Shown: in pieces, positions 33,134-41,839 of the stretch | How the letters are laid out: the number at the start of each line of letters is the position of its first letter | Position numbering within the stretch: the stretch's first letter is position 1 | Virus record (IMG/VR): IMGVR_UViG_3300043423_000073 | Span: 90,700-154,699 of that record | Origin: a virus | Lineage: Duplodnaviria > Caudoviricetes | Reading direction: 5' to 3' (one strand) | DNA: 64,000 bases | The notes under the pieces: generated by a model | Databases searched by the model: none | What the model saw: only the letters and a program-made list of their open reading frames with translations | Told to the model about the DNA's origin: nothing | Translations under genes and position numbers: made by a program

Positions 33134-34498
<1,365 letters not shown>

Positions 34499-34515
34499 CG
34501 CAGTCGTTACCATAT

Positions 34516-34547
34516 AAGGGGAGGGTGGGCTAGCCCACCCTCCCCTT
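34516..34547 (+). terminator. Probable intrinsic terminator (32-bp perfect palindrome plus T-rich tail)
   Basis: AAGGGGAGGGTGGGCT|AGCCCACCCTCCCCTT then TCTGTTTCTG. Confidence 0.8.
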
Positions 34548-34577
34548 TCTGTTTCTGTCTCAAACCAACTTTACATC

Positions 34578-36197
34578 ATGGCAAAAAAACCCACACCAGC
34601 ACCCACAGAAGCGCCGGCTAAAAAGACTAACAAAAAAGCGCCTACCGCAGCTAAGGAAGCCTTGCCTACCTTAGACGTTCAATCCCTTTTCTCTGCCTCC
34701 TTAGACGAAATCTCTAAACGTCAGGGCTTTGAGGCGTCAAGTCTTGACGTGGCTCCGCCTATCTCTTCCGGCATGTTGGCCGTAGATATGATTCTCGGCG
34801 GCGGCATTCGCCCCTGCATGATGACCGGCGTTGCACAAGAGCAGGCAGGAAAAACTACGCTCGCCTTAACCACGATGGGTTCTGCTATCCGTGCGAATGT
34901 GCCAATTATCGCCTTCGCAGACTATGAGGGCTGCTTCACGGCAGACACGCTTCTCGGTTACGGCAAAGGCAAGCACGCACGCCTTGACGAGTTGTTTGAC
35001 CTGTCCTCTGCCGCCGAATGGAAACCTGGGACTTGGGTAGGTCAGGTTCGGCACGATATTGACACGGTCGAACCCGGACACGCCTACGGTGGAACAGGTG
35101 TGCGGCAAGGTGAGCTTTTCTATCGAGGGATTAAACCCACAACAACCGTCACACTTTCTACTGGCCACCAATTGACCGGCTACAGACACCCGATGTTTGT
35201 ATTCCGCAAAGGTCGTGTGGCTGTGCTTCCTCACGAAGAACTGCAGATTGGCGACCAGGTTTTGGTAGGCCGCCAGTCTCGCGCCCACCCGTTGCGTGTC
35301 GCCGGCGCATTGCGCACTTTCGAGCTTCTGCCTCCCCCACGCTCAGGTGAGAACGCTATCCCCTTTACCCCTACTTTCGAGCTTCTTGTCGACTACGACC
35401 TGTCCTCAGTAACTTCCGTTCTTCTCACTGGGCTTACTGCACCTGTGTTCGACGTGTCCTTGGCCGGTGTTAGCGGAGACATCCTACCTCACTCTATCAT
35501 CACCAACGGCATCGTTACCCACAACTCTACGAAGAACTCAAAGCCCTACGTTCACTCAATTCTGAAAGGCATGGGCGTTAACCTCACCATGGACGAGGTC
35601 TTTGGCAAGAAGTCTAAGGACGGTAAGTGGGAGATTGCACCTCGTGTTCGCTATCGCGCAGAGTCAATTCTCGAACGCTTCTACGATTGGCTGTCTGAGA
35701 TTCTTCGCGAACTCCCAGACAAGCTGTATGTAGAGGAGAAGTGGTGGCTGCGATTCGAGGACAACAAGAAGAACAAGGCCAAGGTTGCTGACTTTGTCGA
35801 CGCGGGTATGACCCGCAAATACGGCAACGGTCTTTGGGTACCTGCCCCTGACGACAAGATACAGGCGCTTATCATTGTTGACAGCTACACGGCTATGCAG
35901 CCTGAGGTGAAAGACGAGGAGAGCATCAGCAACCAGCTGTCAGTGAAGGCCTCGGCGTTCTCAAAGCAGCTTGAGCGTGTTAAAGGCCGCATGGCGCAGA
36001 AAATGGTCACAGTCTACGGTCTTAACCATCTGCGCGATAATCCGATGGCTATGTACGGACCTAAGGAAACTGAGAAGGGAGGCAAGGCTTTGCAACAGTT
36101 CTGTTTTGCAGCCCCCACCCTCCTTATTACCTCGCAGGGAATGCTACGCGCCTCGGAAATGGGAGCACTGTATGCCGAAAACGGGACTAACGAGTAA
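34578..36197 (+). CDS. recA: RecA/UvsX-like recombinase, N-terminal precursor (contains cis intein and split-intein N fragment)
   Basis: ISSGMLAVDMILGGG, Walker A AQEQAGKTT, DYEG, Walker B IIVDS, NHLR…MYGPKETEKGGKAL. Confidence 0.9.
   Translation: MAKKPTPAPTEAPAKKTNKKAPTAAKEALPTLDVQSLFSASLDEISKRQGFEASSLDVAPPISSGMLAVDMILGGGIRPCMMTGVAQEQAGKTTLALTTMGSAIRANVPIIAFADYEGCFTADTLLGYGKGKHARLDELFDLSSAAEWKPGTWVGQVRHDIDTVEPGHAYGGTGVRQGELFYRGIKPTTTVTLSTGHQLTGYRHPMFVFRKGRVAVLPHEELQIGDQVLVGRQSRAHPLRVAGALRTFELLPPPRSGENAIPFTPTFELLVDYDLSSVTSVLLTGLTAPVFDVSLAGVSGDILPHSIITNGIVTHNSTKNSKPYVHSILKGMGVNLTMDEVFGKKSKDGKWEIAPRVRYRAESILERFYDWLSEILRELPDKLYVEEKWWLRFEDNKKNKAKVADFVDAGMTRKYGNGLWVPAPDDKIQALIIVDSYTAMQPEVKDEESISNQLSVKASAFSKQLERVKGRMAQKMVTVYGLNHLRDNPMAMYGPKETEKGGKALQQFCFAAPTLLITSQGMLRASEMGALYAENGTNE
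34932..35525 (+). mobile_element. Cis mini-intein in RecA (198 aa)
   Basis: Starts CFTADTLL, block B-like GHQLTGYRH, ends VFDVSL…NGIVTHN followed by Ser; no LAGLIDADG. Confidence 0.9.
36102..36197 (+). mobile_element. Split intein N-fragment (31 aa)
   Basis: CFAAPTLLITSQGMLRASEM… (intein block A) right after RecA GGKALQQF, then stop. Confidence 0.85.
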
Positions 36198-38082
36198 GAC
36201 CAAAGCCGGCCGGGCAGCTTTGTCTGCTCTCGCCAATGCGGCCAAGGCTAGCAAGGTTATCAGTCCTGAGGTGCGCGCCGCAAGAAGTGCTGCCCACAGT
36301 GAGCAATTGAGAAAGCGCCACGCCAACACCTCGCCGGAGCAAAAGGCAGCAACAGCCGAGAAGCGTAGGCGTTCTCTCCTAGCCTATTGGGCAAGTCGCA
36401 AAGGTAAGCCTGACCCTGAACGGTCCGCCAAGATTAGCGCAGCCCAGAAAAAGATACATGCGGGCCTTACTACGAAAGAGAGGGAGGCGCGCAGGAAGGT
36501 ACTCATTAAGGCAAACCGGCTGTCTAATCTCAAGCCTCACCGTAAGTTGAGTGCCAAAGAGATGGCGGTCGCTAATGAAAAGCGGGCAAAGAGCTGGACC
36601 CAAGATGCCAGACAAGCCCAGGCTGCTCGCTCTGTGCAGGTTGCAAACCTACGCTCGCCGGAGGATAAGGCGGTCATAACGTCCAAGCGGCTCGCCTCCT
36701 ACCTTGGTCGATCCGATGCCGACAAGGCAAAAACGTCGAAAAAGATTCGGCTGGCCTACAGCAGGCTAACGCTTGATGAGAAACAGGCGCTTCTTGCCTG
36801 GCGAAATGCAACCAAGCGTGCGCGCGGTACGTTTAACACTTCTCAGGCAGAGGAAGACGCGTATCAGCTACTCTGCGAATACTTTGAGGCCAGTCGCATC
36901 CATAGGAACTTTAGGAGCCCTGTGTACCCATACGCCTGCGACTTTGTAGTTAATCTGGCGGCGGAGGGCAGGTCGCATATCAAAGACGCCTTGTTCATTG
37001 AGTGCAACTTTCATTGGACGCACGGTGGGGCGCCGTTTGACCCCACTGCTCTGCCGCATCGTCAGGCCTTGCGCCGCTGGCGTACCAAGGCCAAGACCAG
37101 CCCGTACTTTGCGACAGGCATAGGTGTTTGGACGGAACGAGATGTTGCAAAACGAGCATTGGCGCGGAAGAACAATCTGTCGTGGTTCGAGTTCTTTAAC
37201 CTCGACGCGCTTGCCGACTTTCTAAAGCGTGCGCATAAGAGACCGAAGCTTGCCTACACCTACACGGACAACGAGCTTGCAAAGGCCGTTGACCGAGTAG
37301 CACATAAGTCGCCAAGATACGTCAATGAGTTTACGTTCAACTTTATGCCGCACTTTTACCGAAAAGAGTTTGCGCTATGGGGTGACACGATAACTCGTTT
37401 TCGTCTTTTGGCCAATCGTGAAAAGTATTTGCGAAAGCCTGCAGCTAGTCTCACCGACCAAGAGATATTGGCAGGTTTCCGAAAATCGGGCCTAACTCAT
37501 CGCGAGCACTTTAGCCACTTTCCAGTCTGCCTAGTCAAGCAGTTTGTTGATTTAGTTGGTCCTCGTAGTGTGTATGATCCATTCCTCGGGTGGGGCCATC
37601 GCATGGTAGGCTTTGCGGCATTAAACGTTAAATACACTGGTAACGACCTCTGGGACAAGTCATACAAAGGAGGGCGTCGAATTGCGGCGTGGCTTAGCGC
37701 GAACTGGACCGGTGCAAGCTGTAGTGCCTTGCAGGGTGACGCCGCGGTGGTCAAGCCCGACGGTAAGCACGACGCAGTGTTCACTTGTCCTCCTTATCCC
37801 TTAGCCGCTGAGGTGTACGAATCGTCTGCAGGTGCCGAGCATCTGCCGCTAAAAGACTATTGGACATGGTGGGCGAAAGTGGTCAAGGCTGGGGCAGCCA
37901 AGAACGTGAGGAGCATAGGGCTAGTCGTGCCGTCACGGTGGGAGAAAGAATACGCAGAACCGATACTCGGCAAGGGTTTCGAGTTAGTCCACAGGGAGCT
38001 AGTCCTGCCTAACGGCAGAGCAGCAAGCCACCTTAGTGTCAAAAAGAACTTTGAGGTATTTTTAATATGGAGAAAACAATGA
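36172..38082 (+). CDS. Basic repeats + Vsr/DUF559-like endonuclease + amino-DNA-methyltransferase fusion inserted in the split intein
   Basis: GGGAG RBS, ATG 36172; SQAEE…YPYACDF…LFIECNFHWTHG…DVAKR…NNL nuclease; DPFLGWG (motif I) and FTCPPY (motif IV). Confidence 0.8.
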   Translation: MPKTGLTSKTKAGRAALSALANAAKASKVISPEVRAARSAAHSEQLRKRHANTSPEQKAATAEKRRRSLLAYWASRKGKPDPERSAKISAAQKKIHAGLTTKEREARRKVLIKANRLSNLKPHRKLSAKEMAVANEKRAKSWTQDARQAQAARSVQVANLRSPEDKAVITSKRLASYLGRSDADKAKTSKKIRLAYSRLTLDEKQALLAWRNATKRARGTFNTSQAEEDAYQLLCEYFEASRIHRNFRSPVYPYACDFVVNLAAEGRSHIKDALFIECNFHWTHGGAPFDPTALPHRQALRRWRTKAKTSPYFATGIGVWTERDVAKRALARKNNLSWFEFFNLDALADFLKRAHKRPKLAYTYTDNELAKAVDRVAHKSPRYVNEFTFNFMPHFYRKEFALWGDTITRFRLLANREKYLRKPAASLTDQEILAGFRKSGLTHREHFSHFPVCLVKQFVDLVGPRSVYDPFLGWGHRMVGFAALNVKYTGNDLWDKSYKGGRRIAAWLSANWTGASCSALQGDAAVVKPDGKHDAVFTCPPYPLAAEVYESSAGAEHLPLKDYWTWWAKVVKAGAAKNVRSIGLVVPSRWEKEYAEPILGKGFELVHRELVLPNGRAASHLSVKKNFEVFLIWRKQ

Positions 38083-38693
38083 TTGTTGCAGTAGTAGGTC
38101 AGAATGGGCCTGAGGCCGGAGGTAAGTTTGGTTTCATGGGTGAGGCACCTTTGCTGCGTCTTGAGACCGAGTCCGGGCACCTTATCGAAGGCAAGCACGG
38201 TCACAGAGTCTGGGCGTGCAAGGCCGCAACTACCGACTTTGCTTGGTACCCGATCGAGGAGCTCCAACAAACGGACTTTGTCCAATATCGACTCGGGGAC
38301 AACCTTTGGGGCACAAACGAAGTCGCTAACAATGTGGTGCAAGCCTACGTTAAAGACGCAGCAAGTCTTGAGGAAGTTCCTCGTGTCATTCGTACCGCGG
38401 CTGAGCCGCACGTCGTCGCCTTCTTGTCGGCCGTCTTTGGTCACGGCGCTGTGCAAAGTCGTGAGTTCAAAACTACGCAGACTGCCATCGACATTCACCT
38501 CATGCTGTGCAACCTTGGCTACACTGCCGTGCGCATAGAGAAAACAGTAAAACGCGGCGTCCTTGATACGACTCCTCGGCAAATGTTTTCTCGCGTCAAA
38601 GCCAGCACAGTGCTTGGGGGTGCTCACCCTACTTACGACATTAACGTGCCTGGCTCAAGCACAATTGTTACCAACGGCATTGTCAGCCACAAC
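38079..38693 (+). mobile_element. Split intein C-fragment (~205 aa) with degenerate LAGLIDADG remnant
   Basis: LETESGHLIEGKHGH (block B), VPRVI…AFLSAVFGHG…LMLCNLGY remnant, terminal HN/S. Confidence 0.85.
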
Positions 38694-39251
38694 TCTGACG
38701 TTCGCCTCAAGCACACTAGCCGAGCACTTTCTGCCGCACCGTTCAGCCCTAAGCCGGACAAGAACAAAGACTACAATGAGAGCGAAGCCTCCGTTGAGTT
38801 TGACGGTAAAGACGTTTACCGCTACGTGGTTATCAAGGCTATCAAGAACAAGTTGTGGACGCCTCAACGTCAGGCGCCTTTGCGCATCTGGGTTGAAGAC
38901 GGAAGCGGCACTGCCCGCGGTTTCGATCCGGTGTTCGACACCATCTGGTACTTGGTCAATACTGGGCAGATGGCGGGAACAAGAAAGAGCTTCAAGTTAA
39001 ATCTTCACAAGAAGGGCGCAGGGGCCAAACCTATTACGTGGGAGCACTTGAAGCGCTGGGTGCTGGGTGACAAGGCCACAATGACCAAAATCTGTCAGGC
39101 CCTTGGCTACAAGCCTTTCTCGATTCGCACTTTCTGTTTCAGCCAAATGGCTTCTGGCATTTCCGAGGAACTTTACCTTGAGCACCTTAACAGCAAAAAC
39201 AAGAACGGCAGTGAGGAAGAAGAAGGCAGCGGCGGTGGAGACGACGAGTAA
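38079..39251 (+). CDS. recA: Split intein C-fragment fused to the RecA C-terminal half
   Basis: ATGA overlap with upstream stop; IntC ends TYDINV…NGIVSHN then SDVRL (RecA ASVRL), KAIKNK. Confidence 0.88.
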   Translation: MIVAVVGQNGPEAGGKFGFMGEAPLLRLETESGHLIEGKHGHRVWACKAATTDFAWYPIEELQQTDFVQYRLGDNLWGTNEVANNVVQAYVKDAASLEEVPRVIRTAAEPHVVAFLSAVFGHGAVQSREFKTTQTAIDIHLMLCNLGYTAVRIEKTVKRGVLDTTPRQMFSRVKASTVLGGAHPTYDINVPGSSTIVTNGIVSHNSDVRLKHTSRALSAAPFSPKPDKNKDYNESEASVEFDGKDVYRYVVIKAIKNKLWTPQRQAPLRIWVEDGSGTARGFDPVFDTIWYLVNTGQMAGTRKSFKLNLHKKGAGAKPITWEHLKRWVLGDKATMTKICQALGYKPFSIRTFCFSQMASGISEELYLEHLNSKNKNGSEEEEGSGGGDDE

Positions 39252-39837
39252 CCTGCTCAATGAGCTTGAGAACCGCTTTGCTACATTAGCTCACTCAATA
39301 CCACAAGCGAGGCGGCAGAACCGCACGTCTCGCTTCTGGCATACTGTCGAGGCGACTACTCAGGAAAACATTGACAGCCTAAAAGCGTCAATTAAGCCAA
39401 AGCAGCTTGAGCACATTGACGCACCTATCGAGCGTCGCGCCTTGCGCTACAAGAAAGAACTACCGCCTTTGTTGAAGACTAACATTCGGCACATTCGCGA
39501 GTTCTTTCTTACTGAGATTGCACCTTTAACCTTTGCGGTAGGTGGCGGCGTTATCCAGTCGCGAGCCGTTGCCGAGCGAACTATTGAGTCAGGTGTAGAC
39601 TCTTCAATGTTTGCACGCTTTGAGCAAATGGTAGGCAGGGCCGCGACCTTGCGCATGGCCCATTACGTGCTCGATATGTTTGAGCTGCCGCCCGCATTTC
39701 TAAACGACATTATCGGACGCCCGAATGAAAAAGAGCCTAAGTCAAGCCGAGAAAGCCCAACGCCGAGAAGCACGCCTCCACAGCCTGCTCGGCGACCTAA
39801 TGATCCCACATCACGCAGAGCACAACCCAGCCGTTGA
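39235..39837 (+). CDS. Hypothetical protein (start uncertain)
   Basis: Open frame between RecA-C and terminase. Confidence 0.6.
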   Translation: METTSNLLNELENRFATLAHSIPQARRQNRTSRFWHTVEATTQENIDSLKASIKPKQLEHIDAPIERRALRYKKELPPLLKTNIRHIREFFLTEIAPLTFAVGGGVIQSRAVAERTIESGVDSSMFARFEQMVGRAATLRMAHYVLDMFELPPAFLNDIIGRPNEKEPKSSRESPTPRSTPPQPARRPNDPTSRRAQPSR

Positions 39838-41839
39838 CATGACTGCACTCGAAGCTCGCTACGACGACGAGTCCTTCGACATTGTGCGTTTAATGTCGGA
39901 GGCTCGCGACCCGGACACTGGGCTTCTCCGCGATTTGCGTATTGATGACCGTGATCTCAAGGAAGCATCCTCGTTCTACGACTTTGCGTTCACCACCATT
40001 GGCAAAGACGCCCACCCACCGTGGATCGTGCAGGGCTGGACAGGCTTACTTTTATTCGGCGAAGTCTGCACTCATTGCAGCGATCCGCGCTGGCTAAACT
40101 TGGAGTGGTTCGTCGACCACGTGCCCAAAGACAAGCCGTTTGCGGACATTAAAGAAGGGCTAACCATCCTCAAGCATGGTGTGTGCCCAACTTGCGGTCG
40201 CCACAAACACGAGTTGATCAAAGACCACGGTCTTCACAACTATGCTGAGTTGGTCAACGTGCTTGGCCAGCGTAGCGGCAAGTCAGCCAGCGCGGCGTAC
40301 ATGGCTTGCTACCACACCCACCGTTTCCTAAAGTTTCCTCGCCTGGCTGACCACACGAATGCCATGCAGAAGAGTACCGAGCTGACGAGCACCTTTGTGT
40401 CTCTCACCTATGCCAAGGCCATCGGTTTGCTCTGGACGCCCTACTTTAACATGATTAGCGAATCCAGCTGGTATTCTGCTTTCCACAAAATGTTAGACTT
40501 TTACGGCAATAGGTACGGGGTGGAGCTTTATCGCAAGCGAGATGAGTACCTAAAATATTTCCACAAGAACCTTCGCTGCTACCCGACTAACCCAAAATCG
40601 CAAACGCTTCGCGGCGACACCCGAAAGCTGGCTGTGATTGACGAATTGGGTCTCTTCCCACTGCCCTCTGGCAACGACGAGGAAGACGAGAAGTCCGACC
40701 GCGCTAACGCTGACGAGGCGCACAAGTCTCTTACCAACAGCTTGGTAACCGTTCAGGCTATTCAGCGCAAACTCTTGGCAAAAGGTATGAACTGCCCACC
40801 TGCGCTAATGCTGGGCGTGTCTTCACCTATCTCAATGCGGGACAAGGTCATGCGAAGATTGCAGGACGCCAAGACGGTTGAGGGCGAAAAGTACATTCTC
40901 GGTGTTAACCTTGCTACCTGGAATGTCAATCCTTCGATTGATCGCGATACACCAATGATTGCCTTGGCCTATGCCTCCAACCCGGAGAAGGCAGAGCGCG
41001 ACTTTGGTGCCAACCCTCCGAGGGTTAGCCAGACCTTTATCAAGCCGCAGCAAGTACCGCTAACCTTGTTTTCAGGCAAGAACACTCACCACGCTCGCTA
41101 CCAGTACGACATACCTGAGTTCATATACGGTAAGCTTGACCGCTTTTACTCTCCTCGTTGGCCCTCTGTGCTTACGATTGATGCAGGTTACAGCAACAAT
41201 AGCTTTGCCTTAACGGGCGGTCACTTTGACTTTGACACGCAGAAGACAGTGATTTCAACCGTTGTGGAAGTCATGACCCAGGAGGGAAGAAAGATTGACT
41301 TTAACGCAATCTACCTCAACATGATTCTCCCGCTCATTAAAGACTTGAACGCCGTCTTGTTGGTTGCGGACCAATGGCAGTCACTAGACATTCTTAGCAG
41401 AGCAAAGGCAGACAGCGGGCTAGAACCTCTAAATAAGAAGGCGATGCCGCGCTGCATGACCACCCAGTTCAGCCCAAAGCGTAAAGACTTTGACTTCTTT
41501 CTGTCCATGCTGGAAAACGGTAACCTTGTCTTACCGCACCTGTCTAATGCCGATTACACTACTGTTTGCTCAGAGTTTATTGACTACCGAACTCTTGCAG
41601 GACAGCCGGTTAAGCACTGGTTGCTCCAGGCGCTGACCGTGCAGGATCAAGGTGTCGGTAAGGCGCCCGGAAAAGGCCAAGGCTTTACAGATGACTTGTT
41701 CCGGGCGTCTGTACTTCTCACAAAGATTCATCACCCTAAGGTGATGGAGAGGCTAAAGCTGGCCTGTACTTGGCCAAGTGTGGGTGGTGCGGCTAAATCT
41801 TCAATGCCAAAACCCGTTTACGTTTCGAGGAGCTTCTGA
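39725..41839 (+). CDS. terL: Terminase large subunit
   Basis: Walker A GQRSGKS, LRGDT, Walker B AVIDE, nuclease TIDAG…NSFA, TDDL; N-terminal CxxC pairs. Confidence 0.85.
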   Translation: MKKSLSQAEKAQRREARLHSLLGDLMIPHHAEHNPAVDMTALEARYDDESFDIVRLMSEARDPDTGLLRDLRIDDRDLKEASSFYDFAFTTIGKDAHPPWIVQGWTGLLLFGEVCTHCSDPRWLNLEWFVDHVPKDKPFADIKEGLTILKHGVCPTCGRHKHELIKDHGLHNYAELVNVLGQRSGKSASAAYMACYHTHRFLKFPRLADHTNAMQKSTELTSTFVSLTYAKAIGLLWTPYFNMISESSWYSAFHKMLDFYGNRYGVELYRKRDEYLKYFHKNLRCYPTNPKSQTLRGDTRKLAVIDELGLFPLPSGNDEEDEKSDRANADEAHKSLTNSLVTVQAIQRKLLAKGMNCPPALMLGVSSPISMRDKVMRRLQDAKTVEGEKYILGVNLATWNVNPSIDRDTPMIALAYASNPEKAERDFGANPPRVSQTFIKPQQVPLTLFSGKNTHHARYQYDIPEFIYGKLDRFYSPRWPSVLTIDAGYSNNSFALTGGHFDFDTQKTVISTVVEVMTQEGRKIDFNAIYLNMILPLIKDLNAVLLVADQWQSLDILSRAKADSGLEPLNKKAMPRCMTTQFSPKRKDFDFFLSMLENGNLVLPHLSNADYTTVCSEFIDYRTLAGQPVKHWLLQALTVQDQGVGKAPGKGQGFTDDLFRASVLLTKIHHPKVMERLKLACTWPSVGGAAKSSMPKPVYVSRSF

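Follow-up and report, generated by a model that had tools for sequence, protein, structure and literature searches.

A recA gene of an uncultured phage fractured by a predicted split intein, with a nuclease-methyltransferase-like gene in the break

Introduction

Fractured genes, in which a split intein divides the host gene and a free-standing endonuclease gene lies in the break, were defined in eight host enzyme types, RecA not included, by Dassa, London, Stoddard, Schueler-Furman & Pietrokovski (2009; PMC2677866). Here, a locus of this kind is described in the recA gene of a virus, found in a stretch of 64,000 nucleotides (nt), hereafter the window, which covers positions 90,700 to 154,699 of IMG/VR virus record IMGVR_UViG_3300043423_000073. 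RecA is encoded in this locus by two open reading frames (ORFs), ORF1 and ORF3, which carry the N-terminal piece (IntN) and the C-terminal piece (IntC) of one intein, and a third gene, ORF2, separates them.

Several described systems come close to this locus. In the fractured terminase, later GOS-TerL, the C-part has every N-terminal intein motif but N1, and one fractured DnaE locus has an additional in-frame intein (PMC2677866). For natural split inteins with a short IntN, the break positions are S1, after strand beta2 (VidaL and PolB16; 15-16 amino acids (aa)), and S2, after helix alpha1 (AceL/GOS TerL; 25-37 aa) (PMC13014065, PMC11766414, PMC10189870). In addition, a split-intein PolB together with an HNH gene is known from a jumbo phage (PMC6892783). 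Homing endonucleases of the EDxHD (Vsr-like) family occur in phage recA genes and in fractured genes (PMC3239194, PMC2677866), and the L2 region of recA is both the cut site of the intron endonuclease I-Bth0305I and the site of the M. leprae RecA intein (PMC3239194).

Anatomy of the locus

The three genes and their parts are listed below. Coordinates are those of the window, all features lie on the + strand, and the basis of each assignment is given in brackets.

34578-36197, + strand: ORF1, 539 aa (ORF list)
34578-34931, + strand: RecA N-extein part 1, ORF1 aa 1-118, ending ...FADYEG (BLASTP to intact RecAs, MAFFT alignment)
34932-35525, + strand: intein 1, contiguous (cis), 198 aa, CFTADTLL...GIVTHN, followed by Ser+1 (alignment, homologues)
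35526-36101, + strand: RecA extein part 2, ORF1 aa 317-508 (RecA residues 119-310), ending ...GGKALQQF and holding the Pfam RecA match (BLASTP, Pfam, PHROG, alignment)
36102-36197, + strand: IntN of intein 2, 31 aa, with block A, Cys1 and a short helix-like stretch, plus the stop codon (sequence, orthologous N-pieces)
36172-38082, + strand: ORF2, 636 aa, free-standing gene inside the break (ORF list, AlphaFold model, homologues)
38079-39251, + strand: ORF3, consisting of IntC and the RecA C-extein (ORF list)
38079-38693, + strand: IntC of intein 2, 205 aa, with block B GKHGHRVW, block F TYDINVPG and block G GIVSHN (Pfam, family profile, BLASTP)
38376-38558, + strand: decayed LAGLIDADG-type insert within IntC, FLSAVFGHGAV ... 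IHLMLCNLGY (IntC family profile alignment)
38694-39251, + strand: RecA C-extein, 185 aa, starting SDVRL, plus the stop codon (BLASTP, alignment)

At its C-terminus, ORF1 reads ...GGKALQQF, followed by the IntN CFAAPTLLITSQGMLRASEMGALYAENGTNE and a stop codon. ORF2 starts at ATG 36172 with a 26-nt overlap with ORF1, is preceded by GGGAG 6 nt upstream and stops at TGA 38080-38082. The start codon of ORF3, ATG 38079, forms an ATGA overlap with ORF2 and has GGAG 6 nt upstream. ORF1 and ORF3 are in the same frame, and the 1884 nt between them contain 46 stop codons in that frame. A frameshift or a sequencing-error fusion was ruled out by these 46 stops in the RecA frame and by the recurrence of the same layout on independent contigs.

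An earlier reading of this DNA, made without database searches (the sequence-only reading), had placed RecA in two genes with the above motifs, positions and junctions, and had described the 26-nt overlap of the middle gene with IntN and its ATGA overlap with the IntC gene. All of this was confirmed by the ORF list, BLASTP and the extein alignment, the overlaps being located at 36172 and 38079. Its IntC length of 205 aa holds for ATG 38079; an alternative in-frame ATG at 38067, the start picked by the gene caller for P0039 (database proteins are given by P number throughout), would yield an IntC of 209 aa.

With the fractured genes of Dassa et al. the locus shares the order of host N-part plus IntN, free-standing endonuclease gene and IntC plus host C-part, as well as a phage DNA-metabolism gene as host and overlapping reading frames. 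As in their terminase locus, the break follows motif N1 and, as in their DnaE locus, a second, contiguous intein is present. The passenger is different: GIY-YIG or Vsr-like (EDxHD) nucleases are found there, whereas here a DUF7487-type nuclease-like domain is fused to a methyltransferase fold. IntC is also longer here (205 vs 122 aa in the Dassa case), because the decayed LAGLIDADG insert has been kept.

AceL-TerL (IntN of 25 aa) and GOS-TerL (37 aa) resemble intein 2 in their short IntN (24-31 aa here), which ends past the first helix, and in a long IntC that has blocks B, F and G; AceL-TerL and intein 2 also both have Cys1 as first nucleophile. The host protein and the insertion site differ from those of both TerL inteins, the +1 residue is Ser here and Cys there, and no sequence relationship was detected. 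VidaL and PolB16 (IntN of 15-16 aa) are likewise natural split inteins with a short N-piece in phage-like metagenome genes. Unlike intein 2, they are split after strand beta2 and not after the first helix, and their insertion lies in the ATP-binding loop and not after the L2 region. A search of the PDB with IntC gave no match to the VidaL chains. VidaL-type inteins occur in UvsX/RecA-like hosts; a literature search of incomplete coverage returned no paper on this.

RecA exteins

In BLASTP against the RecA of phage BcepSaruman, ORF1 residues 21-118 aligned with residues 33-130, ORF1 residues 317-508 with 131-323, and ORF3, from about residue 202, with 320-497. Following in-silico removal of ORF1 119-316, ORF1 509-539 and ORF3 1-205, a protein of 495 aa was obtained. 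This joined product aligned end to end with the RecAs of BcepSaruman, phiRSL1 and Motura, neither junction being gapped. Extein part 2 of ORF1 matched Pfam RecA (PF00154) with 46 bits against a cut-off of 27, and phrog_97 (UvsX-like) matched both ORF1 and ORF3.

The comparison of the spliced exteins with RecA/UvsX profiles had been proposed with the sequence-only reading and supported it, and so did the uninterrupted alleles that it had suggested looking for among relatives: the natural empty-site proteins P0070 and P0044 read GGKALQQFSDVR, exactly the predicted junction ALQQF-SDVR. The collinearity of the exteins with intact RecAs is far beyond what chance would give. Intein 2 is inserted just after the L2 region of RecA, at a site (...ALQQF/SDVRL) that we take to be the equivalent of E. 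coli RecA Y218/A219.

The split intein

The splice junctions read ...QQF/CFAAPTLL on the N side and ...GIVSHN/SDVRL on the C side, and both are conserved in orthologues. When IntN and IntC were joined, residues 1-95 gave a single BLASTP alignment that passes the break (31/32) without interruption and matches the contiguous inteins of P0198-P0200 (P0200, E 5e-8). The inteins of P0198, P0199 and P0200 (466-477 aa) are contiguous, occupy the same RecA site and hold full LAGLIDADG domains, as does that of P0142. With intein 2 the inteins of P0198-P0200 share the insertion point (...F/N then C ... HN then SD) and homologous blocks A, B, F and G; they differ in that each is a single chain, includes the complete LAGLIDADG endonuclease domain and contains no free-standing gene. 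The break point maps after ...AKEF(H) of the contiguous homologues and is, with the helix placed by analogy, of the S2 type, after the first helix of the intein.

The Pfam family Intein_splicing (PF14890) matched IntC with E 0.0011 and 19.2 bits, under the 35.8-bit gathering cut-off, over profile positions 48-155 of 155. As the match begins at profile position 48, the unmatched part of PF14890 is the portion that IntN would supply. Solved inteins were matched by the IntC family profile, the best being PI-PkoII (2.6e-12) and the VMA inteins (4e-11), followed by Pho RadA, DnaB, PI-MtuI and Mxe GyrA (E up to 1e-3). The stretch FLSAVFGHGAV...IHLMLCNLGY of IntC aligned with the second LAGLIDADG motif region of PI-PkoII and the VMA inteins, with the acidic residue changed to His, so IntC was taken to hold a decayed endonuclease remnant.

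A search of 1.84 billion representative proteins with IntC returned 129 relatives, nearly all of which were matching stretches inside much longer proteins. A clear start at the split point was seen among them only in the window protein and in P0040. Four relatives were inspected and all were intein-like, their hosts being judged by eye (P0234, a P-loop protein; P0239 and P0310, large or fragmentary; P0291, terminase-like).

IntC (38079-38693) also matched positions 240-407 of phrog_17415, a terminase-large-subunit profile (E 3e-5), and TerL of the window (39725-41839) matched only positions 407-889 of this profile. This suggests that some TerL members of phrog_17415 carry an intein related to IntC, which has no counterpart in the TerL of this phage.

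Recurrence in relatives

The same three-gene layout was found on several independent metagenome contigs, at 43-75% identity and with all splicing residues retained. Adjacency of the genes in relatives was deduced from pieces falling on contigs of the same size, namely 181,953 (P0156, P0217, P0224), 10,708, 9,015, 11,276 and 3,958 bp. Orthologous N-fragments end 24-29 aa past Cys1 (P0161, 329 aa and without intein 1; P0179, 312 aa; P0155/P0156, 718-719 aa and with a larger intein 1), and the IntN core CF(A/G)xxTLLxTSxGxLRAxE is common to the N-fragments. The C-fragments P0040 and P0041 begin with MET..VVGQ.GPE, at the same intein position as the start of IntC. Orthologues of ORF2 (P0001, P0002) showed 50% identity over 99% of ORF2.

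Compared with the window, the extein of the relatives was 72-75% identical, the IntN core 65-75%, ORF2 50% and IntC 43-46%. None of the lineages had lost Cys1, the His of block B, the Asp of block F, the HN at the end or Ser+1. Because the pieces stay open and in register over 43-75% identity, the locus was not regarded as a pseudogene.

Between two other lineages, IntC was 93% identical and the exteins 77%, and C-extein identity went from 29/30 beside the junction to 18/30 farther off. Such a gradient in sequence identity would fit cassette exchange with co-conversion; ordinary recombination could give the same. Wider locus searches of viral, metagenome and genome contigs, carried out with ORF3, ORF2, P0001 and the family alignment, returned distant nuclease-domain relatives only.

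The passenger gene

In the AlphaFold model of ORF2 (predicted local distance difference test (pLDDT) score 79), residues 11-217 form about ten helices, residues 225-354 a small alpha/beta domain and residues 375-636 a Rossmann-type domain. Residues 1-220 form helical repeats, which were labelled "NUMOD-like" by inspection only. A DUF7487-type nuclease-like domain covers residues ~221-355, in which E227, D257, E277, H284 and D324 are invariant or nearly so. Residues ~375-636 adopt a class I S-adenosylmethionine methyltransferase fold with motif I DPFLGWG. Motif IV reads TCPPY, with Cys in the first position and not (D/N/S)PP(Y/F/W), and was kept in 9/9 fused family members examined. Judged from these alignments, TCPPY is a family-specific variant of motif IV, and methyl transfer is not assured.

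DUF7487 is present in homologues of ORF2 (E 1e-48 to 1e-15), in some cases alongside N6_N4_Mtase, and it is through these homologues that the middle domain was assigned to the DUF7487 group. An Atlas structure search with ORF2 gave a template modelling (TM) score of 0.79 to a DUF7487 cluster, and DUF559 and Vsr clusters at lead-level scores only. Results of fold searches with the whole of ORF2 were filled by matches of the methyltransferase domain. ORF2 resembles I-Bth0305I and the EDxHD (Vsr-like) family in an N-terminal helical region followed by a small nuclease-like domain, and in the order E, D, H, D (E227, D257, H284, D324). It differs in the lack of a detectable sequence or profile match, in its extra C-terminal methyltransferase fold, and in its position in an intein instead of a group I intron.

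In Lak megaphages the nuclease domain family is present in 6-8 places per genome, a multi-copy pattern that would fit a mobile gene. ORF2 is most likely a homing endonuclease that spreads the whole cassette in co-infection. A different role, either as another conflict gene or as a restriction-modification-like enzyme in a single chain (type IIG/IIL style, nuclease plus gamma-class methyltransferase), would affect the reading of ORF2 only and would leave room for trans-splicing of RecA. It would agree with the conservation of motifs I and IV across the family, with the presence of type IIG BpuSI and type I/II methyltransferases among the Foldseek matches and with the pairing of DUF7487 and N6_N4_Mtase in homologues. 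Nevertheless, this role was considered unlikely: the gene occupies the exact place of the homing endonuclease in fractured genes, its N-terminal helical repeats precede the nuclease just as they do in EDxHD homing endonucleases (PMC3239194), phage genomes hold the nuclease family in several copies, and motif IV is CPPY and not (D/N/S)PPY.

In the same phage, outside the window (33702-36146 of the record, - strand), a protein of 814 aa has a strong DUF7487 match (E 2e-36). BLASTP detected no similarity between this protein and ORF2. It may represent another mobile nuclease gene.

Intein 1 and further RecA intein sites

Intein 1 is inserted at ...DYEG/STKNS and ends with GIVTHN, followed by S. 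A clearly homologous intein is present at this site in P0070, and P0048, P0056 and P0135 carry inserts there too. Intein 1 alone gave no Pfam match, and its matches in the PDB were weak and to PolII inteins only; it was recognised as an intein from the precise joint between the exteins, its terminal residues and its homologues.

A contiguous mini-intein at a third RecA site (...VAYG/C...HN/SPEYEPGG), within the L2 region, was seen in P0150 (652 aa, from a 183-kb JGI contig), so the RecA of these related phages has at least three intein sites. In addition, P0158, P0160, P0163, P0183, P0189 and P0191 (846-881 aa; extein identity 69-80%) contain NUMOD4/HNH_3 domains within the RecA ORF. These are presumed to be HNH-type homing inteins, possibly at site 1.

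Genomic context

The source is a 154.7-kb IMG/VR virus record with a CheckV completeness estimate of 65%. Its RecA region is closest to that of the jumbo phages BcepSaruman/BcepSauron, phiRSL1 and Motura. Genes are ordered as sigma factor, single-stranded DNA-binding protein (SSB), RecA, hypothetical protein, TerL and RuvC-like resolvase, the part from SSB to RuvC being common to BcepSaruman, phiRSL1 and Motura. The element is an uncultured jumbo phage and a relative of phiRSL1, BcepSaruman and Motura. The GC content at third codon positions was 0.57-0.58 for the inserts and 0.62-0.65 for the host genes; this closeness gave no clear foreign signal in the base composition of the inserts.

One further feature lies directly upstream of the locus:

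34516-34547, + strand: terminator-like hairpin with a 14-bp stem, between the SSB gene and ORF1 (terminator listing)

This hairpin is the sole terminator-like site listed on the + strand from there to 40000, which agrees with a single transcript for ORF1, ORF2 and ORF3.

The SSB (33134-34498; phrog_15004, E 1.5e-71) has a long C-terminal tail, in which acidic blocks alternate with KKKP-type basic blocks. A start at TTG 39103 would make the ORF between the RecA C-extein and TerL (39103-39837) overlap the end of ORF3. This ORF had no PHROG match, and hypothetical genes stand in the same place in BcepSaruman and Motura.

Discussion

The gene anatomy, the collinearity of the exteins, the conserved layout and splicing residues and the homology to contiguous inteins are best explained by protein trans-splicing of ORF1 and ORF3 into RecA, which is predicted with good confidence. 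The structure proposed in the sequence-only reading, in which one intein splices in cis, a second is atypically split and the break holds a nuclease-methyltransferase-like gene, is thereby supported, and its layout recurs in relatives. That reading had also not recognised the combination as described. As a claim of novelty this goes too far: fractured genes, an extra in-frame intein and a short IntN had already been published, whereas a literature search of incomplete coverage found no paper on this RecA site, on a passenger of DUF7487 plus methyltransferase, or on a LAGLIDADG remnant in IntC. The kind of locus is known as a fractured gene; new are the RecA site ...ALQQF/SDVRL, a passenger that combines nuclease and methyltransferase, and a long IntC that retains a LAGLIDADG remnant.

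The following course of events may be envisaged. An ancestral contiguous LAGLIDADG-type intein would have occupied the RecA site ...ALQQF/SDVRL, and its own endonuclease domain would have decayed. A free-standing mobile gene, nuclease-like and methyltransferase-like, would have been inserted past the first helix of the intein, leaving an IntN of 31 aa and an IntC of 205 aa. At present, ORF1, ORF2 and ORF3 are probably co-transcribed and translationally coupled. The ORF1 precursor would excise intein 1 in cis, and IntN would dock into IntC to complete the HINT fold. Cys1 would then make the thioester, Ser+1 would attack it and the block G Asn would cyclise, yielding a RecA of 495 aa. ORF2, acting as a homing endonuclease, would spread the cassette during co-infection.

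A more far-reaching model, which we regard as doubtful, traces two rounds of parasitism within a single intein. A LAGLIDADG intein that had lost its nuclease would have regained mobility through a nuclease-methyltransferase fusion, and the methyltransferase would mark or read its own target, as in a single-chain restriction-modification enzyme. The result would be a self-protecting homing element, able to occupy an otherwise disfavoured break point of the HINT fold.

Several results weigh against trans-splicing or against a homing nuclease in the break. The Pfam HINT match is sub-threshold (19 bits vs 35.8), block B is without the usual Thr (KHGH), and the AlphaFold model of IntC alone is poor (pLDDT 48). 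IntC has ~75-100 extra residues, which might hinder assembly. As for the passenger, ORF2 and its sub-domains, searched against Pfam with E up to 10, gave no match to DUF7487 (PF24308), NUMOD, Vsr or DUF559, and a sequence and profile search of the PDB gave no match of ORF2 to I-Bth0305I or Vsr.

Alternatively, the RecA fragments could assemble non-covalently, the intein halves serving as an affinity handle only and no peptide bond being formed. A precedent is the split NrdA of Aeromonas phage Aeh1, whose fragments, generated by a mobile endonuclease gene, are reported to come together with no splicing step (PMC3045599). For the present locus this is improbable. The residues that serve chemistry only (Cys1, block B His, block F Asp, HN and Ser+1) are invariant across lineages with 43-46% IntC identity, and an unspliced HINT domain of 236 aa would adjoin the L2 DNA-binding region of the RecA filament, as positioned by alignment.

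Slightly less probable still is a dead or dying RecA, in which the nuclease gene has destroyed the intein and left fragments that no longer function. In favour of this, genes can be inactivated by selfish insertions, the LAGLIDADG domain of the intein itself has already decayed, and in a record that is 65% complete a second recombinase is possible, the record itself containing a single RecA match. Opposed to this are the persistence of an open three-gene layout, without internal stops, in lineages at 43-75% identity, the conservation of the ends and starts of the intein pieces and of the catalytic residues, and the intact ribosome-binding sites and overlapping stop/start codons.

In a further alternative, a group I/II intron or translational bypass would remove or skip the insert in the RNA or during translation, and the intein would then splice in cis as one chain. 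This is very improbable, even though group I introns with ORFs for Vsr-like endonucleases are found in phage recA genes (PMC3239194, PMC2677866) and ORF1 and ORF3 are in one frame. When 34000-40000 was scanned against Rfam with E up to 10, no intron family was matched and no Rfam family was significant. ORF2 overlaps both neighbours and so leaves no room for a non-coding RNA core. Folding of the junction regions was no better than that of shuffled sequence (z +2.3 and +0.2), and both downstream ORFs have their own Shine-Dalgarno sequence and ATG.

At this RecA site, intermediates of one intein's history can be seen side by side: the empty site (P0070), the contiguous LAGLIDADG inteins (P0198-P0200) and the split form with a remnant and a second, unrelated nuclease gene. 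These forms support the model that free-standing endonuclease genes create split inteins, and a break past the first helix appears to arise repeatedly in nature. At least four diverged natural split inteins with N-pieces of 24-31 aa and a Cys1/Ser+1 pair are now at hand, which would be attractive for semisynthesis if active. The nuclease-methyltransferase fusion family occurs elsewhere in phages too and represents an uncharacterised type of putative mobile nuclease. For the phage itself, the sole RecA found in its partial genome is predicted to rely on two protein-splicing events.

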